The notes under the pieces were generated by a model. That model was not told the origin of the DNA. It saw only the letters and a list, made by a program, of their open reading frames with translations, and ran no database searches. 64,000 nucleotides of DNA from an uncultured Rickettsiales bacterium (lineage in GTDB: Bacteria > Pseudomonadota > Alphaproteobacteria > Rickettsiales > UBA1997): the NCBI GenBank assembly GCA_905478165.1, contig CAJQHK010000004.1:27557-91556 (forward strand), given 5' to 3'. The translations under genes were made by a program, and so were the position numbers. Position 1 is the stretch's first letter; the number at the start of each line of letters is the position of its first letter. This document shows positions 14,939 through 64,000 of the stretch, piece after piece.

Positions 14939-14946
14939 AATTAAAA

Positions 14947-17650: not shown

Positions 17651-17661
17651 TTCTTATAGAT

Positions 17662-28236: not shown

Positions 28237-28695
28237 TTATTTATCGGAACTAGCATTATCTTCAATTGTCCTAATATTTCTTTGCAGATTGTTACGATCT
28301 ATTATAGGGTATGATTTTCTCATCTCAGTTGAGACGTCGAATTGATCGACACTAGGTATTTTAATATCAGAAAAATTAACTCTACTTACAGGGTATGATT
28401 CTGGAAAATTATACCCCAAATAGATAGGGAAATAAATTCTAGCATTTCGATCATAGCTACCATATCTAAATTGCTTTATATCAAGTGATGTTCTGGTATT
28501 ATGCTGATCAAAAAGTACCTTTTTAGCATTAGCATCATTGTCTTTAATTCTTCTTTTTACATCAGACAAGCCTCCTCCATGTTGCTCTAAAAAAGCTTGA
28601 TTAGGATTTTTTGAACCTCCTCTAGAGCAAGATATAGCAAGGAATAAGATAGTAAATAGAAATATTTTATAGAAACTAATCATAAATATAGTCAC
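28237..28695 (-). CDS. Hypothetical lipoprotein
   Basis: A lipobox-like LAISC follows a hydrophobic leader. The ORF overlaps the 3' end of the PilB/GspE gene. No family recognised. Confidence 0.45.
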   Translation of the reverse strand: MTIFMISFYKIFLFTILFLAISCSRGGSKNPNQAFLEQHGGGLSDVKRRIKDNDANAKKVLFDQHNTRTSLDIKQFRYGSYDRNARIYFPIYLGYNFPESYPVSRVNFSDIKIPSVDQFDVSTEMRKSYPIIDRNNLQRNIRTIEDNASSDK

Positions 28696-39316: not shown

Positions 39317-40477
39317 CTAAAACTCTTTAAAATAAGAAAACATTGTGTAAAAAGATCTGTACTCAATATTATTTTCTTTAGCGCCTATCCTACTGACTCC
39401 GACCTTCATATTATCACTAATTCTATATCCAATATTATATTCTATATATTTATCAGAAATTTTATTACCAGTTTCGGTGATATTTTTTTGAAAATGAGAT
39501 GTGGAAAAACTCCAACTATTGTAATTAAAATAGATTGAGGCGATCTGATGCAATGAATCGACACCCCTCCCACCATTCACGTTATTAGTTTTTACGATCT
39601 CATAAGATGGTATGATAGATGTGTTTCTGCCTATATTAAATAAATATTCAAAATTAGAGATATAGCCACTCTCCTCAGATAGATCGCTACTATTAACATC
39701 TATTTTTTTATAAGCAAAATGATAAGATAAATCCTGTAAATACAAAAAATTCTTACCAGACAATTTAACAACATAAGAAGATAGACTACCAGTATTTCCA
39801 GAAACCTTATAGAGTCTTTTATTTTTACCCCTCTTGTTGATAGCGCTATTACTTAGATCGGTATTATCGTTAAAAAACGGATAAAATGACAACTCACTAT
39901 TCTCAAATAAGGCTGTAATACCAACGCCTATCTTTTCTCTAATTTGATAATCTCTACCAAAAAATACTGTAAATATAGATGATCTTTTTTTCTTATTCCA
40001 AGAATTGCCAAAATGAGGATTGTACTTTCCTACAAAAAATATTAGATCTTCATTTTTAAAACTTAACTTCAACTCTTCAATAAACAAAGACTCGTCATCG
40101 ACAGAGATTTGGCGATCTTCCAGAGATATTATTGGATTATATACTTTCCTATTTAAATAATGATTTTTACCGGTTTTACGAGACTGCCAAAGGGTCTCAA
40201 CAGACCAATTACGATTAATACTAAGTTTTAAATCAGACTGGGATTCTAATATAGAATTATATTTTTTTATATTCTTATTGTCCTTACTAGACAATTTATC
40301 AATTCCTAAGTTAATCACTAAATCACCAGATATTTTAGGATATGAGTCGTTAGAATAGCTATTTAAAGAAAAAAAACACAAAACTAACCCTAACATTAAA
40401 TAGCTAACCACAAAAATAATGTTGGAAAGAAAATCATTACTATCACTTCTAAAGTTACGCTTATTATTTAAAGTCAT
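39317..40477 (-). CDS. Hypothetical outer-membrane beta-barrel protein
   Basis: It has an N-terminal hydrophobic leader, alternating-residue strands rich in Y/S/N/G, and a terminal aromatic residue (..MFSYFKEF) typical of BAM substrates. Confidence 0.5.
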   Translation of the reverse strand: MTLNNKRNFRSDSNDFLSNIIFVVSYLMLGLVLCFFSLNSYSNDSYPKISGDLVINLGIDKLSSKDNKNIKKYNSILESQSDLKLSINRNWSVETLWQSRKTGKNHYLNRKVYNPIISLEDRQISVDDESLFIEELKLSFKNEDLIFFVGKYNPHFGNSWNKKKRSSIFTVFFGRDYQIREKIGVGITALFENSELSFYPFFNDNTDLSNSAINKRGKNKRLYKVSGNTGSLSSYVVKLSGKNFLYLQDLSYHFAYKKIDVNSSDLSEESGYISNFEYLFNIGRNTSIIPSYEIVKTNNVNGGRGVDSLHQIASIYFNYNSWSFSTSHFQKNITETGNKISDKYIEYNIGYRISDNMKVGVSRIGAKENNIEYRSFYTMFSYFKEF

Positions 40478-40537: not shown

Positions 40538-42316
40538 CTATCCTTCGTTAATTTTTACCGGCAAAACTGTTGTTACTTCAGTACCTCTACCTTCTATACT
40601 CTGAATTAGAACCTCACCACCATGTAATTTAATAAAATATTTAGTAAGGTATAAGCCTATTCCAGTTCCTGATATCTTTAAAGTATTCTTAGCTCTAAAA
40701 AATTTTTTACCCACTTTCTTTAATTCATCCTTCGGTATTCCCATACCACTATCTACCACCTTAATTAAAACTTTACCTTCTACTTTAGTTCCCAAAATTT
40801 TAACAACAGAATTTTCTGGAGAATATTTAACAGCATTACCTATAATATTAGTAAGGCAATGATCCAGCATTTTTTCATCCGCAAGATACTCGTCTGGCAA
40901 CTTATCAATATTGACCTGAATATCAATATTTTTCTTTACATAGATTTCTTTATTTTGTTCTATTATATTGTAAATAAGATCTTTAATTGAAACAGATTCT
41001 ATGTTTGGATCTAAATCTCCATCACTCATTGCAATCTGAGAAAGATCAAGGGTGCTGCTAATTAAATTGTGTAACCTTAAAATTGCATTTTTAATTTTTA
41101 ACAGATCTACTCCCCCCTTTTCAACAGTTAGTGTATTACCCCTCAACCTTCTTAATAAAATTTCTCTAGAAGAGTCAATGATTTGTAAAGGTGTTTTAAA
41201 TTCGTGCGAAGCCATGGCAATAAATTCATTTTGAATCATGCGCATTTTTTTCTCCTCATTCAATGAACTCTTAAGAGCTATGCTTTTTTTCAACAATTCT
41301 CTGTTAGATTCCATAACCTTGTCAAGATATATTGATTTTTGAATAGCAACAGATAGTTGATTTGATATTGTACTTATTATTTCAACCTCCTCATTGTTCC
41401 ATTTTTTAATACTGCCCTGATGCAAAAATAAACCCATATTTAAATTATCATCAATTGGAGTCGATAAGCAAAATTGTGAAGCAATGCGAAACTTGCTACA
41501 GATATCTTTTATATCATAAAATACCTCATCATGATTAACGTCCTCGACTATTACATTTTCCGTCTCCTTGGACACAAAGAGTTTAGGAAATACACTATTA
41601 TGGAAATTAAAATACCTCTTAACTACCTTAAATCTATCATTTACATCAGGGCAATTTACGATGGAAGGAATATCGTCACCACAAAATTCACAAATTAGAT
41701 TAACATCCTGACCATTAAACTGACATAAAATTGCCCTATCAATCTTAAAATTATTACACAAAGCCTTTAATGCCTTATAAGATATTTCACTAATAGGCTC
41801 ATCCCTTAACATCAGGTCACTTGAGACTCTAAGTAATTTTTCACTTCTCAAGACTCTTTCTAAATTGTGAACTAAACCCCTATGCCCTAATGAAGTTTTT
41901 TTACTTGAAATTTCGACAGAATTACCGCTAGAAGAAAGGGAAAATAAGCAATACTTACTATTATATTTAGATATGGAGTCAAAATTAACTTCAAACCTTT
42001 CTGGCTGATCATTGATGTTATAAAAATCTAAAAAAAAATTTAATTTTGATAATTTTACAATATTTTTAGAAATATTGTTATATTCAGCGATATGAGTTAG
42101 ATTATCATCATCATGATCTAATATAGAGTCAAAACCTTCACCAATAATATTGTCAGGATCATAGCCAAAATAGTCAGTAAACTTTTGACTTAGGTATATG
42201 ATTTCAATAAAGTATGGGTTGTCATTATTGATTCTGCACAATAAGCATATTTTTTTATTCTGCTCAACCTCTTTAAATAAATCTTGTTCTAAAATATCAC
42301 GATTCTCACTATCCAT
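40538..42316 (-). CDS. Cytoplasmic sensor histidine kinase (PAS-like and GAF-like N-terminus, HisKA, HATPase_c)
   Basis: H-box MASHEFKTPLQII, N-box NIIGNAVKYSP, G1 DSGMGIP and G2 GTGIGLYL are present. No TM segments are seen and no adjacent response regulator. Confidence 0.85.
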   Translation of the reverse strand: MDSENRDILEQDLFKEVEQNKKICLLCRINNDNPYFIEIIYLSQKFTDYFGYDPDNIIGEGFDSILDHDDDNLTHIAEYNNISKNIVKLSKLNFFLDFYNINDQPERFEVNFDSISKYNSKYCLFSLSSSGNSVEISSKKTSLGHRGLVHNLERVLRSEKLLRVSSDLMLRDEPISEISYKALKALCNNFKIDRAILCQFNGQDVNLICEFCGDDIPSIVNCPDVNDRFKVVKRYFNFHNSVFPKLFVSKETENVIVEDVNHDEVFYDIKDICSKFRIASQFCLSTPIDDNLNMGLFLHQGSIKKWNNEEVEIISTISNQLSVAIQKSIYLDKVMESNRELLKKSIALKSSLNEEKKMRMIQNEFIAMASHEFKTPLQIIDSSREILLRRLRGNTLTVEKGGVDLLKIKNAILRLHNLISSTLDLSQIAMSDGDLDPNIESVSIKDLIYNIIEQNKEIYVKKNIDIQVNIDKLPDEYLADEKMLDHCLTNIIGNAVKYSPENSVVKILGTKVEGKVLIKVVDSGMGIPKDELKKVGKKFFRAKNTLKISGTGIGLYLTKYFIKLHGGEVLIQSIEGRGTEVTTVLPVKINEG

Positions 42317-42370: not shown

Positions 42371-42540
42371 ATTTCCCATTTATAATGCATTATGTAGAAA
42401 AAATATTTTCATGTTAAAATTGTCAAAAAACGACCGCCATATGTTAATGGGTATAAGTCTTTTTGGTAGTTATAAGCTTAAAAGAAGAAGCTAGATCATA
42501 ATATTGTTTACTCGGTGTTATAGATAAGAAATGGTGTTAC
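42371..42540 (+). repeat. Family A repeat, copy A2 (abuts or overlaps the stop of the 42537..43745 gene)
   Basis: ATTTCCCATTTATAATGCATTATGTAGAAAAAATATTTTCATGTTAAAATTGTCAAAAAACGACCGCCATATGTTAATGGGTATAAGTCTTTTTGGTAGTTATAAGCTTAAAAGAAGAAGCTAGATCATA...CTCGGTGTTATAGATAAGAAATGGTGTTA aligns with A1 and A3. Confidence 0.7.
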
Positions 42541-43745
42541 CTCCTCATATTATAAAATAAATCTAAAATTGTAAATCTATTTCTAATTAAGTTAGCATTT
42601 TTTACAGCTTCCAAATATATATCTTCACTTAAACCAATATCGCAATATTTTTGAGGTAAGGAAAAGTGATTTGATATTTGTAATATCTTATCATGAGACA
42701 TAAAGTTCCTAGAAAGCTTCGAGGTTAAGCTTTGAAAATCCTTTAGCTTACTATTAATTATCTTAGATCTCTCTTGATTAATAATTTTACTACTAAATTC
42801 ACTCCAAAAATATATAGCTAAATCCTCATTAAATATTTTTTTAAAATAGTTAAAATTAATGTCCGAAACCTTGGTTTGAAAATTTAATAAATTCAAAAAC
42901 TCTTCCTGCATTTTAGCTATAATCAGGCTAGTAATAGCAATTTGCTCACCATGCAAAGATTTTTCCATTATTTTTGGATATTTAATTTCTAAATAATGAG
43001 CTATCAGATGTTCAGATTGACTTGCTGGATAACTTCCCCCTGAAATTGCCATAGAAATACCAGAGTTAATAAGAATTTTAGCTAATAAAGTAATGAACTC
43101 CTTATCATTAATTTTACCATCATAATTTAATAATTTTTGATATAGATTGCTGACCAAATCAAAAGCTTCTACATTATAATGAGTATCAAGAAGTAGGTGA
43201 GATAAAAGCCAGTCAAATCTGCAAGTTGAAATACAGATACTGTCACCTATTCCAGCACGAATCATTCTTTCTGGAGAATTGATTAAAAGATCAAGATCAA
43301 AATAAATTGCAATTGGTAAATGTGCCAAAAGAGAATTTTTTCTACCAGAGGTAATTATTGAAGCATTTTTAGAAGCGTAGCCATTCATGGATACAGCGCT
43401 GGCAAAAATAATATATGGAATATTATTTCTATAGCTAGAAATCTTACACAAATCATTGATAGTACCAGAACCAAAGCCAACAGTAGCTTTTTTATTACAA
43501 GATTTGGTGATAATTTTTGCAATAGACTCTTCGTCAGGCTTTGGATTATCTAAGATTACTAGATCAATATTTAATGGAAGAAGATTTTTAATTTGAGGAT
43601 AGATATTTTGATCAGTAACAATCAAAATATCCTCTAAATCTAAATTAAATTTTTTAAGAATTTGGGTAAAATTAACGATCAAATTATGATCAATGATTAT
43701 CTCATTAATTGTAATTTGATGTTTTTCTAAAAGATTATTAAACAA
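42537..43745 (-). CDS. Iron-containing alcohol dehydrogenase superfamily protein (Fe-ADH_2; glycerol-1-phosphate dehydrogenase AraM/EgsA-like)
   Basis: VGFGSGTINDLCKISS...PYIIFASAVSMNGYASKNASI matches the G1PDH-type GGG..D.aK...P.i.vPT.aS.DG..S motif. Putative metal ligands lie in GIGDSICIS, SEHLIAHYLE and HGEQIA. Confidence 0.55.
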   Translation of the reverse strand: MFNNLLEKHQITINEIIIDHNLIVNFTQILKKFNLDLEDILIVTDQNIYPQIKNLLPLNIDLVILDNPKPDEESIAKIITKSCNKKATVGFGSGTINDLCKISSYRNNIPYIIFASAVSMNGYASKNASIITSGRKNSLLAHLPIAIYFDLDLLINSPERMIRAGIGDSICISTCRFDWLLSHLLLDTHYNVEAFDLVSNLYQKLLNYDGKINDKEFITLLAKILINSGISMAISGGSYPASQSEHLIAHYLEIKYPKIMEKSLHGEQIAITSLIIAKMQEEFLNLLNFQTKVSDINFNYFKKIFNEDLAIYFWSEFSSKIINQERSKIINSKLKDFQSLTSKLSRNFMSHDKILQISNHFSLPQKYCDIGLSEDIYLEAVKNANLIRNRFTILDLFYNMRR

Positions 43746-43754
43746 TTATTAAGT

Positions 43755-44954
43755 TTAGAAATTTTTCTTTAAACCAAAAGAAAAGATGTTAACTTGAGTT
43801 CTATATTTAACACTTAACCCTTTATTATCAACATTAACATTTTCATAAAATTGATGTACATAAGATGCGTCTAGAGATAAATCATTACCAAAATCATAAT
43901 TAATACCCGTACTTAACCAATAGACATCACCAGTTGGAACGTCAGCAGTTCTGTATTGATCATCAGGGGCGTTGGTCTCAAAAGCGGTGCCAAACCTCAC
44001 CAATAACTCGTCATTATATTGATAATCACCACCTAAACTATACATAAAAGTATCGTGCCAATTATAGGTGAGAGGGAAAAGAGATTCGTTAGTTCCTGAA
44101 TCCTTAAGATCAAACTCTTTTTGTCTTGACCATCTAGTCCAAACAATGTCAGACATCAAGTTAAGCTTGTCATTTAGATCATATTTAGCCCCTATTATAG
44201 CCGATTCAGGAGTGGAAATTTTAAGCACACCATCATTATACTTATTAGATGCTGGCACTTGAAATGTGCCATTTAATTCATACTTAACTTTAGAATTATA
44301 ACTCAATCCTAAATCTAATTTTTTAGTTAAATCATAATTTAAACCCAAACTGTAACCATAACCCCAATCAGAACCCTTATATTTTGCTGTGTTGACGTAA
44401 TATTTGTGAATTAAGGATTTGGTAAATTGCATTTTTTGAGCATTAACGCCAAATCCAAGAGATAATTCATCAGTTAATTTTTGAGATATATTAACTCCTA
44501 AATTAATAGTTTTAATCTCAGTGTCATTGGTCAATTTAACACCAGGCCAATCACTGTTATATTCAGTTGCAAGACCAAAAGGTGAATTTACTAAAAATCC
44601 AATAGTGGTTTTTTCAGCAATTGGAGATGAAAAATAAAATGATGGGATAATGGGGTTAATACCCGCATCACCAACTTCACCAGATGCGCTATTTGGATCG
44701 CCACCCATAGTTTCATTCTCTGGATCAATATCTACATCTAAATAAGCAACAGAAGCAATAAATTGCTTTTTATCAAATTTTGATAAAATTGCAGGATTTA
44801 TATACATATTACTAATATCATGAGCGCCAGTTGCAGATCCAGCATACGAAGTTGCCAGTGCCGAACTTGATGTCGAGTTAGTTGAGTAGCCTGCAGCTAA
44901 TGCATTAGAAGAAATTAAGGCCAAAGAAGCTATAAGAAGCGCTTTATTTTTCAT
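43755..44954 (-). CDS. fadL: Outer-membrane hydrophobic-compound transporter, FadL/OMPP1/TodX family
   Basis: A signal peptide is followed by AAGYSTNSTSSSALATSYAGSATGAHDISNMYINPAIL (the FadL N-terminal hatch signature). The protein has a beta-barrel pattern and ends in F. Confidence 0.8.
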   Translation of the reverse strand: MKNKALLIASLALISSNALAAGYSTNSTSSSALATSYAGSATGAHDISNMYINPAILSKFDKKQFIASVAYLDVDIDPENETMGGDPNSASGEVGDAGINPIIPSFYFSSPIAEKTTIGFLVNSPFGLATEYNSDWPGVKLTNDTEIKTINLGVNISQKLTDELSLGFGVNAQKMQFTKSLIHKYYVNTAKYKGSDWGYGYSLGLNYDLTKKLDLGLSYNSKVKYELNGTFQVPASNKYNDGVLKISTPESAIIGAKYDLNDKLNLMSDIVWTRWSRQKEFDLKDSGTNESLFPLTYNWHDTFMYSLGGDYQYNDELLVRFGTAFETNAPDDQYRTADVPTGDVYWLSTGINYDFGNDLSLDASYVHQFYENVNVDNKGLSVKYRTQVNIFSFGLKKNF

Positions 44955-53798: not shown

Positions 53799-56700
53799 TC
53801 AAAACTTCTTTTCTATTTCTAACCTTAGGAATTCTACCTCCTTCTTGAATAGTTCTTCAATCTTCTTGTCAAAATTATTATCATCTGGTAATTTGTTGTT
53901 TCTGGCTAAATCATTAATTTCTGATAAATATTTAAATAATTTAGAACTTCTTATTGCCCTAGAAGATCCCTTTAATTTATGAATAGATTTCTGTAAATCA
54001 TTGACCTTTGATTTGTCATTTTTTATTTCTTCAATAATATTTTTACCATCACTCTCAAAAACATCAGCAATCTCTGTAGCTTCAGATTTATTAGAAAATA
54101 AAGAGGTGAAATCCCCCTCCAATACATCATTATTGCTGCTATTACTCTTATTCTTGCCACTTTGTGACAGAATATCTATACTGAATCTGTAATCTACCCA
54201 GAATTTTGATAATCTAATTAAATCTTTAGGGTTGCTACCTTTTAACATATAATCGTCAATACCGCTGTTCAACAAACTCATGACAAACTTCTTATCACCA
54301 TCTCCAGATAAAGCTATGATTGGGACTTTACAACTAGCATCATTTTTATCATTGTAGTTAGACTCAATTTTTCTAACTTCTTTTGCGGCATCAATACCAC
54401 CAACCTTACCCATATTAATATCGGTAATAATTAAATGATATTTGGTCGGGTCCAACTGAAATAATTTTACTATATCCTTGCCATCACTGCATTGAAATAC
54501 ATTAGCACCCGCATTGGAAACTTTTTTAGCGATAAGAAATAAATTTATGGCCTGATCATCAGCAACGATAACATTGAGACCTTTTAAAGTTGTATTATTG
54601 ACAACAATATCTTGGCGATGAATACTCTTGGAGGGTATGTAATAATTTAAAACCCACTTAGATATATTTCTAGCAATGAATCTTAAATCTTTTGGCTTTA
54701 TATAATAGGCGTTGCATCCCGCAGTTAGGGCCTGATTAGCAATAGCCTTATCTTCCCTAGAGCTATAAGCTAGAATTGGCAACGCATCCTTAGATATACC
54801 GAGATCATTTCTAATTTTTCTTGTCAATTCTACGCCACTCATTAAAGGCATTTCAATATCAGTTAAAATCAAGTCAAACTGATCACCACACTCTTCCTTG
54901 GATTTAATCAATTCAAAAGCTTCAATTGGATAAATTATGATAGTAATATTAAAATTAGGACATTTATTTCTTAAATCCCTAGCTAGAATTTCTATGTTAG
55001 TCCTAATATCATCGACTAAAAGAATATTTTTCTTAGGATTCTTACTTAAAGATCTCTCTAATTCATATGCACCCTCTTCAGATTTGTTAGATTTTTTTAT
55101 CTTATCTTCAAAATCTAAAATCTTATTGACACCCTCCCTCTTTTCATTATCTGATAAAATTGGAAATAATAAACTAAATTTGGTAAATTCATCAATTTTA
55201 CTTTCGCAAATTATAGCACCACCAAAATTATTCATCATTCTGTTGCAAAAATCTAAACCAACTCCAGTTCCACCCTTTTTATCTAGTGTAAAATATGATT
55301 GAAATATTTTAGTAATTACCTCCTCCTTAATTCCTGGACCAGTATCGGTCACACTAACTACGTTATATTTACCAACTTCGAGCTCTATACCTGCATCACG
55401 GACTGAATCAGAAACATTAAATTTTTTGAGCAACTTTTTATTAAAAGTTTTTTCTTTCTCAAAGGAAATGGTGATATTTGAACTTGGATATTGATCAAGA
55501 TAAAATAAGGCATTTTTAACTAAATTAAAAATTATATATTTAAATCCAGTATCATTTGCAAAAATTATAAAATCATTTTCATTATCAATATTTTTAACTG
55601 ATATAGATTCCAAATCAGATTGACCTGCTGTTACACTCCTATCATCATATAAGTTAATAATAATTTTCTCCTTTTCTTCATTATTTTTATATCCGTAAAG
55701 AGAAGCTGTATCTAAAATTAATTGCTTAGCAGAATAATAACCAAAATCCTCTCTAGTAAACTTCTTGCCACCCAGTTCATGCAAAGTTATATCGATAATA
55801 TTACTAGCTAAATCTATCGTTTTATTAATTTGACCCTTAAAATTAGCAATCTTTATACTTGATTCATCTATTATTTCTTTAAACTTACTATCCCTATACA
55901 CAATCTTTTGTAAGTTCGGATCATGACTAATATTATCCTTTATCGATACCAAATTTTCAGTTGTGAGTCTTATCGCTCCAAGAGGATTACGAAGCTCGTG
56001 AGCAATTGAGCCCGCAAGAGCTATTAAAGCAGACTCCTTCTCTCTTAGAAAGTGTAGATGTAGACGTACCCTCTCTAGTGCGATACCAACCTTGATGACC
56101 AAATCATCAAAAACCTCCATATCCTCATAATAAAAATAATTGCTTTTATTAGGACGAGATTTTAAGGTAATAAAGCCCATTTTCTTGTTGTGAAAAGTAA
56201 GAGGTATATAACCCTCAAACTCTCCATCTGTCATGATTAGTTTTAATTTTTCATAAGCCTCATTAAGTTTAATTGACAATAATATTTTGTTGCTATTGAA
56301 CTCTTTTGTTAATTTTTTTAATGTCTTAAAAGCGATATCTTCACCAAAATACCTAGAAAAACCTAGATTATCTTTGTTTGCAAAAATCCCAAGATCATCA
56401 GAAATATAAAATGATTTTATTTCTACCTGCATATCACCTCCTATGATAGATTTAATCTTACTAAGCAATATATCTATGCTTACTACATCAAGAACCTCAT
56501 TATTAATTTTTTTCATGATATTTTTCTTATCATACCTAACGCCAAAGCCAAAATTTATACCTAAAGATTTAAAACCTTTTGTTAAAATATGGTATAACTC
56601 AAGCGATATAAAAAAATATATTATAGTTAGTAATGATATTAAGATTGTGTTATCAACATTACCTAACCTCGTGTATACCTCAGACAAAACTACGTAAGAT

Positions 56701-57395
56701 AAGAATAGAATTAAAAAAGAAAACACCTTAATAAAGACCTTGCTAAAAATAAATATATCAGAAATACGATGTATTACCATTGAATATGTAATAACAATGC
56801 AATACATAGCTATCAGAATAGTTGCAAACGGATATAACTCTATTTCAAAATATGGAAAACAAGTTGTAAAGCCGCCTGCCCAACCTATGGCAAAGCCATA
56901 AAAAATCAGTTTATTTTTATAATAATTTTTAATAGATTTGTGTATTATAACGAAACTGAACAAAACAACCGATACCATATATATAAAAAATATATACCAT
57001 AATGGCGTGATATTCGGTGCAAAATTAAACTCTAAAAAAGGAGATACACCCTCAACCATAATAGGAGTAAACATAAGGATAACAAGAATTGCAACCAGTG
57101 TATTTTCTACCATCTGACAAGGTCTACTTATTTCAAATCTAGTTAAAAATCTTGCAGTCTTGAAAAATAAATATGGTATTAGAACCAAAGAAGCTAAAGT
57201 AACCTTCGAATATAATAGAGCGTGTTCTTCTGATTTTGAAATCAAATGTAATCCGTAAGAAAAACTCCAAACACACAAATTAATATTAAACATAGCAAAA
57301 CTGCTATACTTTCTATCAGAAAAAATTAAAAATATTGCTAACAAGAAGCAGGTAGCAAAAGTTACAAAAAAAGAAAATAGAACAAAATCTGTCAT
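53799..57395 (-). CDS. Polytopic hybrid sensor histidine kinase (multi-TM sensor, GAF-like, HisKA, HATPase_c, REC, REC, HPt)
   Basis: Residues 1-275 form about 8-9 hydrophobic helices with minimal loops. H-box is AGSIAHELRNPLGAI (H466), N-box NLVKNAL, G1 DTGPGI and G2 GGTGVGL. REC1 is ILLVDD...LILTDIEMPLMSG...YYIKP. REC2 is VIVADD...LIITDINMGKVGG...DYMLKG. The HPt reads QKSIHKLKGSSRAI (H1139). Confidence 0.88.
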   Translation of the reverse strand: MTDFVLFSFFVTFATCFLLAIFLIFSDRKYSSFAMFNINLCVWSFSYGLHLISKSEEHALLYSKVTLASLVLIPYLFFKTARFLTRFEISRPCQMVENTLVAILVILMFTPIMVEGVSPFLEFNFAPNITPLWYIFFIYMVSVVLFSFVIIHKSIKNYYKNKLIFYGFAIGWAGGFTTCFPYFEIELYPFATILIAMYCIVITYSMVIHRISDIFIFSKVFIKVFSFLILFLSYVVLSEVYTRLGNVDNTILISLLTIIYFFISLELYHILTKGFKSLGINFGFGVRYDKKNIMKKINNEVLDVVSIDILLSKIKSIIGGDMQVEIKSFYISDDLGIFANKDNLGFSRYFGEDIAFKTLKKLTKEFNSNKILLSIKLNEAYEKLKLIMTDGEFEGYIPLTFHNKKMGFITLKSRPNKSNYFYYEDMEVFDDLVIKVGIALERVRLHLHFLREKESALIALAGSIAHELRNPLGAIRLTTENLVSIKDNISHDPNLQKIVYRDSKFKEIIDESSIKIANFKGQINKTIDLASNIIDITLHELGGKKFTREDFGYYSAKQLILDTASLYGYKNNEEKEKIIINLYDDRSVTAGQSDLESISVKNIDNENDFIIFANDTGFKYIIFNLVKNALFYLDQYPSSNITISFEKEKTFNKKLLKKFNVSDSVRDAGIELEVGKYNVVSVTDTGPGIKEEVITKIFQSYFTLDKKGGTGVGLDFCNRMMNNFGGAIICESKIDEFTKFSLLFPILSDNEKREGVNKILDFEDKIKKSNKSEEGAYELERSLSKNPKKNILLVDDIRTNIEILARDLRNKCPNFNITIIIYPIEAFELIKSKEECGDQFDLILTDIEMPLMSGVELTRKIRNDLGISKDALPILAYSSREDKAIANQALTAGCNAYYIKPKDLRFIARNISKWVLNYYIPSKSIHRQDIVVNNTTLKGLNVIVADDQAINLFLIAKKVSNAGANVFQCSDGKDIVKLFQLDPTKYHLIITDINMGKVGGIDAAKEVRKIESNYNDKNDASCKVPIIALSGDGDKKFVMSLLNSGIDDYMLKGSNPKDLIRLSKFWVDYRFSIDILSQSGKNKSNSSNNDVLEGDFTSLFSNKSEATEIADVFESDGKNIIEEIKNDKSKVNDLQKSIHKLKGSSRAIRSSKLFKYLSEINDLARNNKLPDDNNFDKKIEELFKKEVEFLRLEIEKKF

Positions 57396-58131: not shown

Positions 58132-61100
58132 TTATAATTTAATCAATGAAATTGAATCTTCGATTTTACTAACAATAAACTCTTTATTTCTACTTAAAAA
58201 CCAATGATCTCCATGAAGCTCATGAAAACTAAAATTATTATCAGTCTGATCTTCCCATTGCTTCAACTCATCTAATAAAACAACATCATCTTCTTTTGCT
58301 CCAAAAGCTAAAATTGGAATACTTAATTTCTCTTCATCCTTATATTGATAAGTCATAATTACCTCCATATCCCTCTTCATCACTGGTATTATACTACGCA
58401 AAAAATCTTCATCATCAATATACGATACTGTTGATATAATCTTATCGATAGTATTCTCTTTTCTAGCTGTCTCCTTTATTGATTCCCTGCCTCTCCATTT
58501 TTTTGTTAATTGTGGAGCTATAGACCCTGTGACAATAAGCTTTTTGATATTTTGATATTCAGTAATATTATTTCGTCTCATATATTTTATTACTTCATAA
58601 AGAGTAACTCCTCCCCAGCTATGACCCCAAAATATTGATGGGCCATCGATTTCTGGAATTATCTGTTTAGATAAATCTTCGACTAATTTATCCACATTGC
58701 TATAGTAATACCCTTCGTCCAAACGATTCTCTCTACCCGGCATTTGTAAGGCGATGATTTCAGTATTCTTTGGAGGATTGAAGATAAAATGACTAAAAAT
58801 TGATGCACCAGCACCCACAGGATGTAGGCAAAAAATTTTTATTTTTACATTGTCATCCTCTTTTCTTCTTCTGACAAACCATTTGTCGCTACTTACCACA
58901 ATATCATCATCTCCATCTATTCCCGACTTATCTAATCCTACATTATCGCTATCTTTCTTAAGCATGGATATTATCTCTGTAGCCAGTTCTGTTAGACTGG
59001 GACCTTTTGCCAGCCTCATTAAAAACAAATTTATTTCAATATTTAATTGAATCCAGCTTCTAAATTGATTAAGCATCAAAGAGTCTAATCCAATGGTCGT
59101 AATAGAATTATTCAAAGAAATATCTTCACCAGAAACTCCCAAAATATCTGCAACACTATTTGCCAACAATTCCGATACCTTTTCAACCTTCCAATCAATA
59201 TCGTCAGATGCTATTATTTTCTGTAAAATACCATCCAAATTATTACTCTTACTAAATGAGTCCTTCTTTATAACAGCGCTAAACATAAATCTATCCTTTA
59301 CAGATTTATAAGTTTTAACAAAATTACTCCACTTCATTGACGATATCATTAAATAGTCAAAATTAGAATTTAAAAGTTCTTCTAATTTTAGATCAATATC
59401 ACTCCTGTTTATTACGACCGTACCTAACGCTCTATATATAGAATCAACATTTTTCTTACTATCTTTTGTCATTCCCGCATAATCACCACCGATAAGGCCA
59501 AAACACGCAGAATGACAAGCTAAACCATTGCTATTCCTGTAAATTGACAAGTAATTTAAAAAGCTGTTTGCTGATGAATAGTTGCTTTGTCCGCCTATTC
59601 CAATAAATGAGGAGACTGAGGATATTAGTAAAAATAGATCTAACTCAGTATCTAAAGTTGCTCTGTGTAAATTCCAAGCTCCTAATGCTTTTGGATCATA
59701 GACTTTGAAGAATCTTTCTTTAGTCATATTTGGATATGAAGAATCGTCTAATATACCGGCAGAATGAATTACTCCCCTCAATGGCGGCATATTATTTTTA
59801 ATGTAAGAAATTACCCTGTTGATATCTTCCTCTTTCGAGACATCTCCCTTTACATCTTGCCAATTAATATTAGCACCTAAATTTTGTAATTTTAATATTA
59901 TTTTATTATCTCTTTCATATTTTGGTCCTGACCTACTAACTAAAGCAAAATTTCTTGCACCCCTTTCAAACATCCACTCAGCAAGAGTTAGGCCAAGACC
60001 GCTGGCGCCACCACTTATTAAATAGGTTGCATCATTTTTAAATGACAATTCTTGGTTTGTGTCCATTTTTTGCTCAATTGCTACTAATTTTCTGGCAAAC
60101 CTACCATAATCTCTAATTGCAATTTCTGTTTCATAAGGGACCTTCTCTTCCTTGTTTATTTCTTTAATTAAATGACTGACATTATCTTCTAATTTTTGAC
60201 AGCCAAGATCAATCATCCTAACTTGATGATCAGGATGTTCATTCATAAATACCCGACCCATACCATAAAGCGAACCTTGTAAAAAATTTATATTCTTATC
60301 CTTTTCCTTATCAACTTGATCAGCATTTTTAGTAATCTGATAAATATATATTTCTTGATTTTCTATTTTTAATATCTCTTGAGATAGATAGAGGTTTGAT
60401 AGAAATAAATTCTGCGACTCTATCTGAAAAGCTTTACTATCACTGGTATCATCAATTATTGAGTCCACTGACCAAAGATTAATAATTTTAGAAAGTTTTA
60501 TATTTTTATTTTTTAAACTCAAAAATAGCTCAATAAAATTATCTTTGGAGGTTGGGTTGATTCTGTAGTGATTGCTGAATTCATTCTGGAAAGAAGTTCC
60601 TTTATCTATAGTGATAATATTATATCCAGCTTCTGATAACTCCTTTGATAATGGAGTTGACAAACCTTCATCAGAAAGAATGGCGATATTGATTTTATTG
60701 TTTTTAGTAACATCTGCGCTTGCGATCTTAGTTTTAACATGTGACTCAAACCATTGATATTTATAAAGACCTCTATCTGCATTATCTTCTTGGATATCCA
60801 GGCAGCTCTTGTTTATATTTTTTGTTATAGATACTATCTGACTATCGGAATCATAAGTCACGACATCAGAAACTATATTTTTACTATCAATTGAGTGTAA
60901 TTTTACATAACTCCATAATGTAGATTGTTGATCCTTATATTTAGTAAATTTACCAAAACTTTGTGGTAAATAAATATTGTCACCACCAGCAAAAAGAGAT
61001 GCATGTAAACAAGAATCAGATAAATTTGGAATTATATTATATTGATCAGCAATATACTCATCTTCTTGTGACAGTTCAACTCTGGCCAATATCTCGCCAT

Positions 61101-64000
61101 CATCATTTTGCCACATCTCTTTAATTAATCTAAAATGATATCCGTAATTAAGACCCTTACTTTTTAATTTAGAGTAAAATTCATCGACAGAAATCTTTTT
61201 ATCAATCCTATTTTTTAGATCTTTTAATTTATCATAATTGTTAGCATCATTAGCGGTGCTATCACATGATATTTTGCCACTACTATTTGATTGCCAGTTT
61301 TGACTATCGCCTTTTTTACTAAATATCTGATAAAGACCGGACTCAAGATTAATTTCTATTTTTGCTTCAACTTGCTCCTCCTTATCTGACAAAAACAATG
61401 CCTTTTTAAATTCAAGATTTTCTATATGAGAAAATTTATCACCGTAAAACTTTTTACCAACAGCAATCGCAATTTCTGCATGAGCGGTTGCGGGCAAAAC
61501 CATAACTCCGCCAATTTTATGGTCAGCAAGGAATATTTCTTTCTTCGGACTTAAATCTAAATCAATAATTTTTAGATTTTTATCCAAACTACTTTCAATA
61601 ACCGTTTTAATAAATGGGTGAATTCTCTTTTTTAATCTTGATTCTTTATGATCTTCACTCTCATACCAGTATTCCTTGTGATCCCAGCTATAGGTTGGTA
61701 ATTTAATTGAAGTTGGGTTTTGGTTTTTATCTACAAGTAAATTTAAAAATTGTGTTCTATTTGTTGCTACGTGAACTTTGGCAGCTGCTGACAAAATGTC
61801 ATTAATTTCATAATCTATATTAGCTTCAAAGCTTTTGATGTTTCTGGAAAGTGAGGAAATTATATAGCCATCTTTTTTTGCTAAAGATAACATATCATTA
61901 ACGCCAGCACCTAAGATTGGGTGTGGAGCGATTTCAATAAAATAATTAAATCCATCTGCAATCATTTTTTCTATTGCTGAGATAAAATAAACTGTATCTC
62001 TAACATTTTTATACCAATATTCATTAGTTAAATGTAAACCACTCTCTTGAAGTCCTGTAACAGTTGAATATAAAGAGATTGCTGATTTTTGAGGCTTAAG
62101 ATCCTTAAGACTTTCAATCATATCATCTCTTGTCATATCCATATAATGACTATGGAATGGTACATTTATCTTTAGGAATCTACTAAATATATCTTTTTCT
62201 TCCAATTCTTTAGCAATGATTTCTAAAGGCTCTGCATCTCCTGATAAAACTGTTGCTTCTGGCCCATTGACAGCTGCAATCGAAACTTTTCTTTGATATT
62301 TTTGTATAATTTGTATAGATTTAGAAAGTGGTAATCCTATGGCTAGCATCTTACCTTTTCCAGAAGCTTTATCCTGCTCTTTTGATCTATTGTAAATTAC
62401 ATCTACTGCCTGCTCTAAAGTAAGAGATCCTGCGCCATAAGCTGCAGCTACCTCACCTATTGAATGACCAACAATTCCATCTGGATTAATTCCCAGATAT
62501 TTCCAAATCTCAATGAGACCTATTTGTACGGCCATTATTGCTGGCTGAGCTATTCTTGTCTCAGAAACTCTAGAATCTTCTTTGTTTTTTTTCATCTCTG
62601 TTAGTAGAGAATAGCCAGAAATTTTATTAAAAATCTTATCAATCTTAGTGATAATTTCGGAAAATATTTTTGATTTTTCCAACAATTGCCTGCCCATAGC
62701 ATACCATTGAGGACCTTGCCCAGAACAGATAAATGCTATTTTTAACTTTTCATTTTTTTTAGTTTTTCCTGTTATGATTTGCTGATTTCGTGTATCAGAA
62801 ATATATAGGGACAATTTCTTGATTAAATCTTCTTTTGAGTTACAGATTATTATAAGTTTTTCTTCAAAGTTTGATCTGTTATTAATAACGGAATAACAAA
62901 TATCTATCAAATTATTTTTACCATCTCTGGTAAAATTAAGATATTTTTCTGCTAATTTTTTTAAAGAATTTTTAGATTTCGCTGATAATGAAAAAATGTA
63001 AGGGAAATTATCATTACTATCTTCTGATTTAGATTTTTGTTCTGACTTAGAATTACTAACATACTCCTCCAAAACAATATGAGAGTTGGTACCTCCAGCA
63101 CCGAATGAATTAACACCAGCAATTGCCTTTCTATCTTTTTTACCAGGCCATTTGGTTAATTTGGTTGGAACTTTTAATTTCCATTCATCAAATTTAATCT
63201 TAGGATTTGGAGTGTTAAAATGTAAGTTTTGTGGAATTTGCTTATTCTTAATGCAAAGAGCTAATTTAGTAAGACCTGCAATGCCAGCGACAGCTTCGGT
63301 ATGACCAATATTACTCTTAATTGAACCAATAATTAAAGGATTTTGAGGATCTCTATCCTTAGCAAACACATTACCAAAAGCTGCACATTCCTTAGGGTCA
63401 CCAACCACGGTTCCAGTTCCATGAGCTTCAATAAAATCAACATCCTTAGGATTAATAGAGGCGCCAGAGTAAACCTCTTCAAGCATCTGTTGTTGAGCAA
63501 ATTCATTTGGTACAGTCATACCATCTTCAGTATAACCATCAAAATTTACTACAGCATTTTTAATTACTGCATAAATATTATCACCATCCTTTTCAGCTTG
63601 ATCTAGCGGCTTCAAAATTACAACTCCAGCACCTTCACCCCTAACATAACCATTACCAGCAGCATCAAAGCTTTTACAATAACCATCAGGACTTAAGAAT
63701 CCACCCTTTGATAATCCAACAAAATGCTCATGACTAGACATAATGTTAACACCTCCAGCAATTGCCATATCAGCATCTCCAATCCAAATATTATTACAGG
63801 CAATCTGCACAGCAACAAGGGAGGAGGAGCAGGCGGTATCAACAGATAAAACTGGGCCCTTTAAATTAAATTGATAAGCAATTCTAGCAGGAACTGTCAC
63901 ATCGGAACTTCCCATTAAGCTATGAGCATTAATATGATCTATATCATCTCCAGCATATTTTTTTCCTTCATCGCCTAAAAATATACCAGTTATTACCGCT
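58132..64000 (-). CDS. Type I polyketide synthase, KS-AT-DH-KR-ACP-TE; N-terminus lies beyond the window edge
   Basis: The frame stays open upstream of the listed Met to nt 64000 (AVITGIFLGDEGKKYAGDDIDHINAHSLMGSS...). KS (about 63061-64000): DTACSSSL (Cys codon 63829-63831), EAHGTGT, KSNIGHTE. AT (about 61846-62739): FICSGQGPQW, GHSIGE (Ser codon 62461-62463), VPFHS. DH (about 60796-61623): HKIGGVMVLP (H-x3-G-x4-P). KR (about 59476-60693): GGASGLG, HSAGILDD, SNYSSAN. ACP (about 58966-59193): GLDSL. TE (58135-58848): GHSWGG (Ser codon 58618-58620), HGDHWF. Confidence 0.9.
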   Translation of the reverse strand, partial: AVITGIFLGDEGKKYAGDDIDHINAHSLMGSSDVTVPARIAYQFNLKGPVLSVDTACSSSLVAVQIACNNIWIGDADMAIAGGVNIMSSHEHFVGLSKGGFLSPDGYCKSFDAAGNGYVRGEGAGVVILKPLDQAEKDGDNIYAVIKNAVVNFDGYTEDGMTVPNEFAQQQMLEEVYSGASINPKDVDFIEAHGTGTVVGDPKECAAFGNVFAKDRDPQNPLIIGSIKSNIGHTEAVAGIAGLTKLALCIKNKQIPQNLHFNTPNPKIKFDEWKLKVPTKLTKWPGKKDRKAIAGVNSFGAGGTNSHIVLEEYVSNSKSEQKSKSEDSNDNFPYIFSLSAKSKNSLKKLAEKYLNFTRDGKNNLIDICYSVINNRSNFEEKLIIICNSKEDLIKKLSLYISDTRNQQIITGKTKKNEKLKIAFICSGQGPQWYAMGRQLLEKSKIFSEIITKIDKIFNKISGYSLLTEMKKNKEDSRVSETRIAQPAIMAVQIGLIEIWKYLGINPDGIVGHSIGEVAAAYGAGSLTLEQAVDVIYNRSKEQDKASGKGKMLAIGLPLSKSIQIIQKYQRKVSIAAVNGPEATVLSGDAEPLEIIAKELEEKDIFSRFLKINVPFHSHYMDMTRDDMIESLKDLKPQKSAISLYSTVTGLQESGLHLTNEYWYKNVRDTVYFISAIEKMIADGFNYFIEIAPHPILGAGVNDMLSLAKKDGYIISSLSRNIKSFEANIDYEINDILSAAAKVHVATNRTQFLNLLVDKNQNPTSIKLPTYSWDHKEYWYESEDHKESRLKKRIHPFIKTVIESSLDKNLKIIDLDLSPKKEIFLADHKIGGVMVLPATAHAEIAIAVGKKFYGDKFSHIENLEFKKALFLSDKEEQVEAKIEINLESGLYQIFSKKGDSQNWQSNSSGKISCDSTANDANNYDKLKDLKNRIDKKISVDEFYSKLKSKGLNYGYHFRLIKEMWQNDDGEILARVELSQEDEYIADQYNIIPNLSDSCLHASLFAGGDNIYLPQSFGKFTKYKDQQSTLWSYVKLHSIDSKNIVSDVVTYDSDSQIVSITKNINKSCLDIQEDNADRGLYKYQWFESHVKTKIASADVTKNNKINIAILSDEGLSTPLSKELSEAGYNIITIDKGTSFQNEFSNHYRINPTSKDNFIELFLSLKNKNIKLSKIINLWSVDSIIDDTSDSKAFQIESQNLFLSNLYLSQEILKIENQEIYIYQITKNADQVDKEKDKNINFLQGSLYGMGRVFMNEHPDHQVRMIDLGCQKLEDNVSHLIKEINKEEKVPYETEIAIRDYGRFARKLVAIEQKMDTNQELSFKNDATYLISGGASGLGLTLAEWMFERGARNFALVSRSGPKYERDNKIILKLQNLGANINWQDVKGDVSKEEDINRVISYIKNNMPPLRGVIHSAGILDDSSYPNMTKERFFKVYDPKALGAWNLHRATLDTELDLFLLISSVSSFIGIGGQSNYSSANSFLNYLSIYRNSNGLACHSACFGLIGGDYAGMTKDSKKNVDSIYRALGTVVINRSDIDLKLEELLNSNFDYLMISSMKWSNFVKTYKSVKDRFMFSAVIKKDSFSKSNNLDGILQKIIASDDIDWKVEKVSELLANSVADILGVSGEDISLNNSITTIGLDSLMLNQFRSWIQLNIEINLFLMRLAKGPSLTELATEIISMLKKDSDNVGLDKSGIDGDDDIVVSSDKWFVRRRKEDDNVKIKIFCLHPVGAGASIFSHFIFNPPKNTEIIALQMPGRENRLDEGYYYSNVDKLVEDLSKQIIPEIDGPSIFWGHSWGGVTLYEVIKYMRRNNITEYQNIKKLIVTGSIAPQLTKKWRGRESIKETARKENTIDKIISTVSYIDDEDFLRSIIPVMKRDMEVIMTYQYKDEEKLSIPILAFGAKEDDVVLLDELKQWEDQTDNNFSFHELHGDHWFLSRNKEFIVSKIEDSISLIKL

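Follow-up and report, generated by a model that had tools for sequence, protein, structure and literature searches.

What does a polyketide synthase (PKS) of type I make in a planktonic alphaproteobacterium, and is the synthase that runs off the edge of the DNA analysed here a complete enzyme or the end of a longer assembly line? The gene lies at the end of the stretch of 64,000 nucleotides under study (the window), where 1955 codons (58132..63999, minus strand) are open and free of stops from the stop codon at 58132-58134 up to the window edge. Since this 5.9-kb open frame lies in DNA of 30 % G+C and comes with the Pfam E-values given below and in Table 1, the gene is real and not a product of chance. 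A 133-kb marine scaffold carries a full-length protein of 2089 residues (P0001, L001 10001-16270) that is 100 % identical to the PKS of the window. With this protein as reference, the window encodes the last 1955 residues (135-2089) and lacks 134 N-terminal codons; the ATG at position 63915 is the first in-frame ATG of the visible frame only and not the gene start. The initial annotation, made from the window alone, had the visible part begin inside the KS. Indeed, the PF00109 match spans profile positions 118-252 only, and the N-terminal part of the KS therefore falls outside the window.

The gene has been preserved intact. Among the cluster members listed are nine full-length variants, 99-100 % identical; numerous contigs of ENA, NCBI, Tara, Logan and JGI carry such variants, and a Tara 0.22-0.45 um fraction contains a related protein cluster. 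The host, labelled Rickettsiales or Pelagibacterales, is an uncultured alphaproteobacterium of marine origin. Because a 6.3-kb PKS gene is maintained at 99-100 % identity over many ocean samples in a planktonic organism of 30 % G+C, the enzyme likely matters to it. In the nanopore MAG loci L002 and L004 the PKS is broken into several ORFs, which we treated as homopolymer sequencing error and not as pseudogenes.

Table 1. Features of the PKS gene and of the two genes downstream of it, in window coordinates (residue numbers refer to P0001).
Feature	Position	Strand	Basis
Type I PKS gene, 5' end outside window	58132..64000	minus	open frame and identical full-length protein
KS, visible part (residues 135-450)	63052..63999	minus	PF00109, PF02801
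KS Cys191, DTACSSS	63820-63840	minus	motif
KS His327, EAHGTGT	63409-63429	minus	motif
KS His367, NIGHTE	63295-63312	minus	motif
AT (residues 554-860)	61822..62742	minus	PF00698 Acyl_transf_1, E 1e-71
AT GHSIGE	62452-62469	minus	motif; AT also has Arg672
AT VPFHS	62149-62163	minus	motif
DH (residues 926-1205)	60787..61626	minus	PF21089 + PF14765
DH His961 in HxxxGxxxxP, HKIGGVMVLP	61492-61521	minus	motif
DH Asp1129 in DxxxH, LSDSCLHA	61000-61023	minus	motif
KR structural (pseudo-KR) subdomain (residues 1206-1449)	60055..60786	minus	PF21394, E 5e-11
Catalytic KR (residues 1450-1640)	59482..60054	minus	PF08659, E 1e-52
KR Rossmann motif GGASGLG	59992-60012	minus	motif
KR LDD motif, HSAGILDD	59743-59766	minus	motif
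KR SNYSSAN	59566-59586	minus	motif
ACP (residues 1736-1815)	58957..59196	minus	PF00550
ACP Ser1774 in GLDSL, phosphopantetheine-accepting	59077-59091	minus	motif
C-terminal TE, type-II-like (residues 1851-2089)	58135..58851	minus	PF00975, E 2e-19
TE Ser1928, GHSWGG	58609-58626	minus	motif
TE His2066, HGDHWF	58198-58215	minus	motif; Asp2038 = third catalytic residue
Sfp-type 4'-phosphopantetheinyl transferase (PPTase), 237 aa	57405..58118	minus	PF01648 + PF17837
Hybrid sensor histidine kinase, 1198 aa	53799..57395	minus	HisKA_7TM, HisKA, HATPase_c, Response_reg x2

Analysis with Pfam yields the domain order KS-AT-DH-psiKR/KR-ACP-TE, as first proposed, and detects no ER or methyltransferase family in the visible PKS; all the catalytic motifs quoted by the initial annotation were located (Table 1). 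The KS matches ketoacyl-synt N (E 1e-42), Ketoacyl-synt_C (2e-36) and KAsynt_C_assoc, the DH matches PKS_DH_N (2e-14) and PS-DH (2e-22), and the ACP matches PP-binding (1e-7). The protein was compared with 110 homologues of common architecture (1900-2500 aa), and the catalytic residues are invariant or nearly so: those of the KS in 107-110 of the 110, the DH His, Pro and Asp as well as the DS of the ACP motif in all of them. A Cys-His-His KS, an AT with GHSxG in cis and an ACP with DSL, all on one polypeptide, make this a cis-AT type I PKS; the best NCBIfam match is PKS_plus_SDR (1134 bits, under its cut-off of 1740). The malonyl specificity suggested earlier for the AT is favoured by GHSIGE, the conserved Arg and the Phe of the xxFH motif, VPFH being the consensus throughout the family, and the AT is predicted to be malonyl-specific. 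A KS of FAS or PUFA type would have spoken against the original interpretation; the KS scores best with those of cis-AT PKSs (CurL 413 bits, PikAI 370 bits, compared with about 263 bits for animal FAS). Identity with the PUFA synthase PfaA was rejected, the TIGR02813 model giving 416.6 bits, far under its cut-off of 1010, and the ACP being single, not tandem. As far as sequence can tell, grouping with modular cis-AT KSs (CurL, PikAI, DEBS) does not separate iterative from single-use enzymes.

The spacer between DH and catalytic KR, originally taken to be a KR structural subdomain of about 300 aa, is such a subdomain, but its length is about 245 aa. An AlphaFold model of residues 1206-1640 (pLDDT 81) matches whole KR didomains (DEBS KR1, 2fr0, and macrolactin KR, 5d2e; E 1e-22 to 1e-24) over about 430-446 aligned columns, and at the level of this model the psiKR/KR fold is confirmed. 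The catalytic KR residues are Lys1571, Tyr1608 and Asn1612. Around the catalytic Tyr the sequence reads FIGIGGQSNYSSAN; position -8 is Ile and position -1 is Asn. We agree with the B-type assignment of this KR because it has the LDD motif (its last Asp conserved in 104/110 homologues), lacks the A-type Trp at -8 and has Asn at -1.

As for the C-terminal TE, all 11 of its PDB matches were reported as TEII-class: 6vap, TesA (6fvj), RifR (3fla), human TE2 (4xjv), RedJ (3qmv), SrfD, a DEBS-RifR fusion and three chains labelled just "thioesterase" are among them, whereas no DEBS-type or Pik-type macrocyclising TE occurs in these 11. Because the TE is type-II-like, release is probably hydrolytic. 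Of the two products envisaged before, a free acid or a lactone, the TEII-like TE favours the former, and the lactone is judged less likely.

The closest context for these features is a large family of synthases, roughly 8000 homologues and mostly from Bacteroidota, with the order KS-AT-DH-ER-KR-ACP-TE. In the members that bear it, the ER is inserted exactly after the position of residue 1449, directly behind the pseudo-KR; the window PKS has no residues at this point, and an ER with its GGVG NADPH motif is absent. Among the 110 homologues the NADPH motif is intact in 69 and degenerate in 28; in the other 13 the ER is missing or reduced to a stub. Forms without an ER fall in at least 3-4 places on the family tree, and the clade of the window PKS comprises members with a degenerate ER (P0005, P0006), with a stub (P0008) and with none (P0001-4). 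Sequence comparison indicates that the ER has repeatedly decayed or been deleted in this family, and this recurrence marks the ER-less state as a functional variant that has arisen several times from an iterative enzyme of the FAS-like kind. From such a series of active, dead, truncated and absent ERs one could learn how the reductive programme of iterative synthases evolves. The Bacteroidota single-module synthases (Flammeovirga, Reichenbachiella, Catalinimonas, Xanthocytophaga) are full-length homologues, 40-70 % identical, and agree with the window PKS in domain order and in the signatures of AT (VPFH) and TE (GDHWF); a PPTase usually adjoins them too. Unlike the window PKS, most of them keep the ER, and their neighbouring sensors are TM+GAF proteins or an MCP. 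They are annotated as "type I polyketide synthase" or "SDR family oxidoreductase". In Yersinia, a distant member (37 % identity) is preceded by a loading module of the AprA-like type, which suggests that members of the family can also act as non-iterative terminal modules. Neither a functionally characterised member nor a report of the gene cassette described below was found in the literature searched; a large clade of monomodular KSs without characterised members has been noted in metagenomes (PMC10308959).

The most informative context of the PKS is provided by two downstream genes that the initial annotation did not use. The PPTase gene follows 13 nt after the PKS stop, and the kinase gene 9 nt after the PPTase; in L001, PKS and PPTase together occupy 10001-16997. 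The kinase begins with about 7-8 TM helices (aa 1-277, from hydropathy), followed by a GAF-like region (about 290-450) and the HisKA/HATPase core (460-745); behind these lie two REC domains (about 790-915 and 942-1061) and a tail that resembles Hpt and contains HKLKGSS (about 1125-1190). Its orthologues give Pfam Hpt and weak GAF matches, and it is orthologous over its full length to the kinase adjoining P0009. A PPTase adjoins the PKS homologue in L002, L005-L011, L013, L014 and L016-L019, and the cassette of PKS, PPTase and 7TM kinase is present in at least 9 loci with differing flanks. The kinase is orthologous, with 38-44 % identity in the sensor part, in window/L001, L002, L005/6, L007, L009 and L016, whose flanks are unrelated; in L007 the order is PKS-HK-PPTase. 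The adjacency of synthase and membrane sensor kinase is thus conserved across rearranged loci, and a reciprocal scan starting from the sensor found PKS-PPTase upstream in 3/5 loci. In L021 only a remnant of the PKS is left, KS residues about 28-96 running out of frame into the TE tail GDHWFLSRNK; codons 357 and 414 of the kinase are in-frame stops, and a PPTase was not detected: PKS and kinase have decayed jointly. On the other hand, L004, a homologous locus of the nearest MAG, lacks both PPTase and kinase beside its PKS, and L020 carries the sensor but shows no PKS over 7.4 kb upstream. The close sensor family is very small: among 1.84 billion representatives HMMER gives 19 clusters at E<=1e-30, next to 233 distant relatives of the sensor. 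Homology of the 7TM sensor to the TM+GAF neighbours in Bacteroidota was considered and rejected, BLASTP and hhalign both being negative, and by sequence the latter are analogous, not orthologous, sensors. A correlation of sensor neighbours with ER loss was likewise rejected, the ER-intact P0036 also having a TM+GAF neighbour. The single-sequence AlphaFold model of the sensor (pLDDT 41) is too poor to use, and promoter and terminator scans in the A+T-rich DNA of the window stayed at chance level.

Taken together, we favour, with a probability of roughly 60 %, a PKS that works iteratively and reduces partially, and whose product, an unsaturated or hydroxy fatty acid, is functionally tied to the kinase; the iteration, the product structure and the nature and direction of the kinase link are what we infer here. 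The PPTase would bring the ACP into its holo form at Ser1774, and malonyl units would be loaded by the AT and condensed by Cys191/His327/His367 of the KS. The B-type KR would then give a D-3-hydroxyacyl intermediate and His961/Asp1129 of the DH a trans-2-enoyl intermediate, whose double bond would be retained, as the PKS has no ER. The single module would be used repeatedly, until the TEII-like hydrolase (Ser1928/Asp2038/His2066) frees a conjugated-unsaturated or partly hydroxylated fatty acid, which would be the ligand of the adjacent kinase, or the output that the kinase controls. No FAAL, loading ACP or second PKS was found in the cassette, and de novo iterative use is therefore favoured. 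A mono-modular type I PKS is an ordinary enzyme type, and all testable parts of the original interpretation of this PKS held. The cassette of three genes should express easily in a heterologous host.

The same domains could be used only once. As the PKS lacks a loading domain, its KS must be primed directly, and it could be an elongase that joins a fatty acyl-ACP or acyl-CoA to one malonyl unit, giving a DSF-like trans-2-enoic or 3-hydroxy acid read by the kinase. The Yersinia relative, which is probably single-use because a separate loading module precedes it, would agree with this, as would an analogy to RpfF/RpfC and CqsA/CqsS, since the PKS adjoins a hybrid kinase that is polytopic and equipped with REC and Hpt. 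However, FAAL, acyl-CoA ligase and loading ACP are absent from all cassettes examined, the PKS has no homology to RpfF or CqsA, and the majority of relatives, with an active ER, would merely add C2 to a saturated acid, an odd task for an enzyme of 2400 aa. We therefore regard a single round as unlikely. A reductase acting in trans, LovB/LovC-like or the FabI/FabK/FabV of the host, is more doubtful still; it would allow fully reducing synthesis of an ordinary saturated fatty acid and leave the missing ER without chemical consequence. Fungal HR-PKSs offer a precedent for a dead ER complemented by a trans ER (LovB/LovC), and ER-dead members are common in the present family. Against this, neither the cassette nor the surroundings of any homologue examined contain a gene for a reductase. 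A candidate PfaD-like trans-ER at 15817-17223 was rejected: the NMO match is weak and not PfaD-like, has no NCBIfam support, and the ORF adjoins secF. Moreover, the ER has been lost repeatedly and completely, which suggests that the unreduced product was selected.

An aromatic product of the 6-methylsalicylate or naphthoate type is highly improbable. Bacterial enzymes of the ChlB1, NcsB and AziB type have the same domain list, KS-AT-DH-KR-ACP, and such partially reducing iterative PKSs match the window PKS when compared by domain list alone. But a canonical ER separates psiKR from KR in its closest relatives, which are therefore FAS-like fully reducing enzymes, the DH His/Asp dyad is complete, the KR didomain belongs to the modular type, a fused TE is atypical of the 6-MSAS/naphthoate class, and no tailoring or aromatic-handling genes were found nearby. 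Finally, a PKS ORF that crosses the window edge could be the final module of a multimodular line that starts outside the window, as the initial annotation had left open, but the DNA upstream of the identical copy rules this out almost completely, since only 134 residues are missing, the KS begins at about residue 19 of P0001 with just 18 residues and no docking or ACP region ahead of it, the upstream genes in L001 are fumC (fumarase), a hypothetical gene, argG and SOD, and the orthologous loci L005, L007, L009 and L016 have no further PKS genes either. The PKS is a lone, self-contained module with no loading domain and no partner modules.

Returning to the iterative, partially reducing synthase, its link to the kinase may be plain regulation, because regulators commonly adjoin biosynthetic genes. 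It is also possible, at odds clearly against, that the cassette is a self-contained lipid signalling module, in which a diffusible unsaturated fatty acid would be sensed in the membrane by the co-inherited 7TM/GAF-like kinase. If so, small free-living marine alphaproteobacteria, which to our knowledge are not known for quorum-sensing-like systems or PKS genes, would have a polyketide-based signal between cells or of cell state, and the analogous pairs of PKS and membrane sensor in Bacteroidota (TM+GAF, MCP, SpoIIE/SiaC partner switch) would be products of independent assembly. The strict linkage of PKS and kinase together with their joint decay leads to a testable hypothesis, that of a new lipid signal or a regulated lipid in abundant marine bacteria.

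Several known systems resemble the PKS or its cassette in part. The PTM synthases invoked initially (IkaA/HSAF type, KS-AT-DH-KR-ACP-C-A-T-TE) have the same reductive set, also in lone modules, and use it iteratively for polyenes. That part of the comparison stands, but as an analogy only: the window PKS has no NRPS part, PF00975 alone following the ACP with no condensation or AMP-binding domain found by Pfam, and it ends in a TEII-like hydrolase, not a Dieckmann-type TE. MAS and MAS-like PKSs (KS-AT-DH-ER-KR-ACP), Dictyostelium Pks16 and animal FAS are single-module iterative enzymes of similar layout (whole-protein scores of 618 bits for MAS and 604 bits for Pks16). In contrast to the window PKS, all have an ER, MAS takes a FAAL-supplied fatty-acyl primer and lacks a TE, and the KS of animal FAS is clearly more distant than that of CurL. 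The enediyne PKSs (SgcE/CalE8) unite KS-AT-ACP-KR-DH-PPTase on one protein, whereas here the order differs and the PPTase is a separate gene. SwfA and SupA from sponge symbionts and WcbR/RkpA are lone bacterial type I modules thought to be iterative (PMC3908369). SwfA (KS-AT-DH-ER-KR-ACP) has HATGT, GHSSGE and IAFH and the partners SwfB/SwfC (PMC3908369), whereas in the window PKS the motifs read HGTGT, GHSIGE and VPFH, the TE is fused, and the partners are PPTase and kinase. As regards the kinase, its core has LuxN as best NCBIfam match (180 bits, far under cut-off), and its sensor family (HisKA_7TM and GAF-like) differs from those of the RpfF-RpfC (DSF), CqsA-CqsS (CAI-1), LqsA-LqsS and LuxM-LuxN systems, to whose synthases the PKS is unrelated. 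Like the cassette, each of these systems places its synthase gene beside a polytopic hybrid kinase with REC (Hpt).

The PKS frame stays open, without a stop, over 1955 codons up to the window edge, and the gene therefore extends upstream; position 63915 in the ORF listing is only the first in-frame ATG and not the gene start. The full-length form is P0001, a protein of 2089 aa from a 133-kb scaffold (locus L001) of the coastal Mediterranean metagenome SOLA22-1, which is 100% identical to the window-encoded part, so that the window lacks just 134 of its residues; its N-terminus reads MKMNNHTVKSIKKSSVKKFPIAIIGMG and its KS starts at about residue 19. The initial annotation, made from the sequence alone, had the visible part begin within the KS, and the Pfam match to the KS N-domain is indeed confined to the profile positions listed in the table. 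Every motif quoted there for the PKS domains was located at window coordinates, and neither an enoyl reductase (ER; ADH_zinc_N-type) nor a methyltransferase family was matched by Pfam in the window PKS, in agreement with the absence it had reported.

Coordinates and domain assignments of the features discussed
Feature	Sequence	Coordinates	Strand	Assignment
PKS frame	window	63999 to 58132	-	
KS	window PKS		-	Pfam: C-terminal half of KS N-domain (profile 118-252), Ketoacyl-synt_C, KS-AT linker families
AT	window PKS		-	Pfam: Acyl_transf_1, E 1e-71
DH	window PKS		-	Pfam: PKS_DH_N and PS-DH
psiKR region	window PKS		-	Pfam: PF21394
KR	window PKS		-	Pfam: KR, E 1e-52
ACP	window PKS		-	Pfam: PP-binding
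TE	window PKS		-	Pfam: Thioesterase PF00975, C-terminal, last in order
Hybrid histidine kinase	window	53799-57395		
Kinase sensor	window kinase			HisKA_7TM region, 7-8 hydrophobic helices
Kinase GAF-like region	window kinase			weak GAF matches, seen in orthologues
Kinase core	window kinase			HisKA/HATPase, then two receiver domains
Kinase tail	window kinase			Hpt-like, HKLKGSS; Pfam Hpt found in orthologues
tRNA genes	window	2275-2357, 2547-2633, 20705-20789		
FadL	window	43755-44954		
Second histidine kinase	window	40538-42316		
402-aa protein	window	42537-43745	-	Fe-ADH_2
Fusion protein	window	20805-21776	-	Amidase_2, C-terminal NDUFS4-like
615-aa protein	window	22898-24745	-	
386-aa protein	window	39317-40477	-	
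Secretion ATPase	window	28676-30394	-	T2SSE and MshEN domain
Kinase orthologue with FadL	L020	4139-8915		
Decayed cassette	L021 (metagenome contig Ga0257114_1000448)	9709-13474		
PKS copy	L002 (MAG JAYQKE01)	9986-16242		
PKS copy	L004 (MAG JAYQKE01)	9986-16262		
Partner-switching neighbourhood	L013 (Catalinimonas alkaloidigena)	14278-18508		
Two-protein PKS line	L015 (Yersinia kristensenii)	1-13179		

An alignment of 110 homologues of 1900–2500 aa reveals that the KS Cys/His/His, the AT GHSxGE and Arg, the DH His...Pro and Asp, the KR Gly-rich motif with Lys/Tyr/Asn, the ACP Asp-Ser and the TE Ser/Asp/His show little or no variation. The AT motif VPFH, earlier read as nearer to the malonyl type, is the family consensus (Val-Pro in 101–105 and Phe in 97 of the 110) and no oddity of the window PKS; taken with GHSIGE, ETRIAQPA and the conserved Arg, it speaks for malonyl-CoA, judging from published specificity motifs. 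The assignment of the KR to the B-type is retained, since LDD is present, the A-type Trp is absent and an Asn precedes the catalytic Tyr. The spacer between DH and KR had been taken for a KR structural subdomain of about 300 aa; its length is about 245 aa, whereas its nature stands, because the ER of ER-containing relatives (~320–390 residues) is inserted exactly after residue 1449 of P0001 and because an AlphaFold model of residues 1206–1640 (pLDDT 81), built from nine aligned family members without ER, aligns with complete KR didomains, among others macrolactin KR 5d2e, DEBS KR1 2fr0, Lsd14 and TylKR1, over ~430–446 columns (E 1e-24 to 1e-19).

The enzyme is a cis-AT type I PKS and belongs to a mono-modular family without characterised function. 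Its KS, for which a FAS or PUFA affinity had been named as a point to check, is not of that type: the best scores are those of the cis-AT PKS KSs CurL (413 bits), PikAI (370) and Pks13 (364), followed by DEBS (about 325) and MAS (about 318), with animal FAS clearly lower (about 263) and the PfaA model at 417 bits vs a cut-off of 1010, scores that do not tell iterative and modular KSs apart. All 11 PDB relatives of the TE, including 6vap, M. tuberculosis TesA, RifR, human TE2, RedJ and SrfD, are type II thioesterases (TEII) or chains labelled merely 'thioesterase', and they include no TE domain of the DEBS or Pik type; this kinship points to hydrolytic release as a free acid over lactonisation.

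The protein search yielded about 8000 homologues. The best 120 of these are mostly ~2400-aa proteins of the order KS-AT-DH-ER-KR-ACP-TE, from Bacteroidota (Cytophagales, Flavobacteriales) and, in some cases, Planctomycetota and Yersinia; their source-database names point to no function. The ER is wholly absent in 12 of the 110 aligned sequences and reduced to an N-terminal stub in one (P0008); its NADPH motif HxxxGG[VLT]G is preserved in 69 sequences, has degenerated in 28 and is missing from the remaining 13. ER-less proteins occupy at least three to four separate places in a neighbour-joining tree. The clade of the window PKS comprises the ER-less P0001–P0004, P0007, P0009 and P0010, the ER-bearing P0005 and P0006 with degenerate motif, and P0008, sister to P0001–P0004; an ER-less Bacteroidota clade (P0050–P0062) is sister to P0019 and P0028, both also degenerate. 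The sister placement of proteins with a degenerate ER and clades without one suggests that the ER was repeatedly inactivated and then deleted, and enzymes without an ER appear to be a selected form of a FAS-like iterative synthase and no accident. Identities to close relatives (KS 87%, AT 80%, TE 79%, KR 65–74%, psiKR about 56%, DH 44–66%) follow the usual order, and the gene is maintained, as full-length variants from many samples in the 90% cluster are 99–100% identical.

The Sfp-type PPTase (237 aa) starts 13 nt past the PKS stop and the hybrid histidine kinase (1198 aa) 9 nt past the PPTase; the following gene, kdsA, is convergent. The trio recurs with an orthologous kinase (38–44% identity in the sensor part, 36% over the full length) at L002, from a MAG titled 'Rickettsiales bacterium' (PKS 85%), at L005/L006 from Tara (65%), L007 (50%, gene order PKS-kinase-PPTase), L009 (54%, ER-bearing) and L016 (53%), with different flanking genes at each locus. 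Reciprocally, scanning metagenome contigs with the sensor-domain alignment returned five loci, three of which (L017, L018, L019) have PKS and PPTase directly upstream of the kinase; at L020 there is no PKS within 7.4 kb upstream of the kinase, in which the contig ends. In the decayed cassette of L021, the codons for KS residues ~28–96 run directly into those of the TE tail GDHWFLSRNK with a frame shift of one base, which implies that about 5.9 kb was deleted within the PKS; the PPTase is not detectable there, and two in-frame stops interrupt the kinase, at codons 357 and 414, one of them within the conserved GFITLKSRP motif. Among 1.84 billion representative proteins, a full HMMER scan found only 19 clusters of sensor relatives at E≤1e-30 (233 at E≤1e-10), the same order as the count of PKS-linked lineages seen. 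The reciprocal loci, the joint decay and the small sensor family show, on comparative grounds, that PKS, PPTase and kinase behave as one functional unit, in which the kinase may sense the product or control its synthesis.

In Bacteroidota the PKS-PPTase pair often has signalling proteins of other kinds beside it: at L008, L010, L013 and L022 the PKS adjoins a ~470-aa protein that combines TM, GAF and coiled-coil regions, after which L013 has a partner-switching module (SpoIIE phosphatase, DUF6272, SiaC), and a divergent MCP-like protein is found at L014; no signalling neighbour stands beside the pair at L011 (Flammeovirga). Homology of these sensors to the 7TM kinase was rejected, the sequences being unrelated, as was a tie to ER status, which their presence does not track. 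The two very similar PKS copies of MAG JAYQKE01 are each split into several ORFs, L002 with PPTase and kinase, L004 with neither and hemB following; the breaks are probably nanopore homopolymer errors, and the copies possibly a strain mixture or misassembly and not true paralogues.

The window is ordinary chromosome (27–34% G+C) with genes for aminoacyl-tRNA synthetases, gatB, asd, dxs, metK, uvrC, nadE, secF, nuoC, an addA-type helicase, kdsA, fadL and three tRNAs. GatB has unnamed relatives at 86–89% and MAG proteins labelled Pelagibacterales or Rickettsiales at about 70%; the nearest PKS-bearing genome is titled 'MAG: Rickettsiales bacterium', and the related cluster at 65% PKS identity stems from a Tara surface sample (0.22–0.45 μm). 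The host is thus an uncultured marine alphaproteobacterium, probably of small size and free-living. FadL lies near a second histidine kinase, about 9 kb from the cassette, and at L020 the kinase orthologue adjoins a second hybrid kinase and an outer-membrane fatty-acid channel of the FadL type; this proximity may reflect a link with the sensing or uptake of fatty acids. Directly adjoining fadL in the window, the Fe-ADH_2 protein has NAD(P)-dependent glycerol-1-phosphate dehydrogenase as best NCBIfam match (E 7e-50, below cut-off); homologues of this enzyme are unusual among bacteria. Elsewhere, an N-acetylmuramoyl-L-alanine amidase and a domain like the complex I 18-kDa subunit form an odd fusion in one ORF, a type II/IV secretion ATPase lies amid housekeeping genes, and neither Pfam nor NCBIfam gives a match for the proteins of 615 and 386 aa.

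We favour, with a probability of about 0.6, a stand-alone, iterative, partially reducing PKS. Once its own PPTase has activated it, the single module would be used repeatedly to turn malonyl-CoA into an acyl chain that is unsaturated or hydroxylated in part, the TEII-like hydrolase would free this chain, and the acid would be tied functionally to the neighbouring 7TM hybrid kinase. An elongase acting in a single round, with a DSF-like 2-enoic acid as product, is an unlikely reading of the same module; that a trans-acting ER complements the ER-less PKS is more doubtful still, and an aromatic enzyme of the 6-MSAS type is highly improbable. Distant family members can be terminal modules, since the Yersinia homologue follows a PKS with an AprA-like loading region (AprA_N, Methyltransf_36) as second and terminal module of a two-protein line. 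For the window PKS a longer line is rejected and the lone module upheld, because the genes upstream at L001 (fumarase C, a 138-aa hypothetical protein, argininosuccinate synthase, Fe/Mn superoxide dismutase and further genes) are unrelated to PKS and P0001 has no loading AT, ACP, GNAT or docking region ahead of its KS.

The stand-alone PKS differs in defining features from PTM synthases, PUFA synthases, enediyne PKSs, fully reducing FAS-like PKSs and SwfA, and its TE from macrocyclising TEs. Mono-modular bacterial PKSs without assigned function are already recognised (SupA, SwfA, WcbR; PMC3908369), as is a metagenomic clade of uncharacterised monomodular KSs (PMC10308959); the present one is worth pursuing for its conserved synthase-PPTase-sensor cassette and its occurrence in a Pelagibacterales/Rickettsiales-like planktonic lineage.
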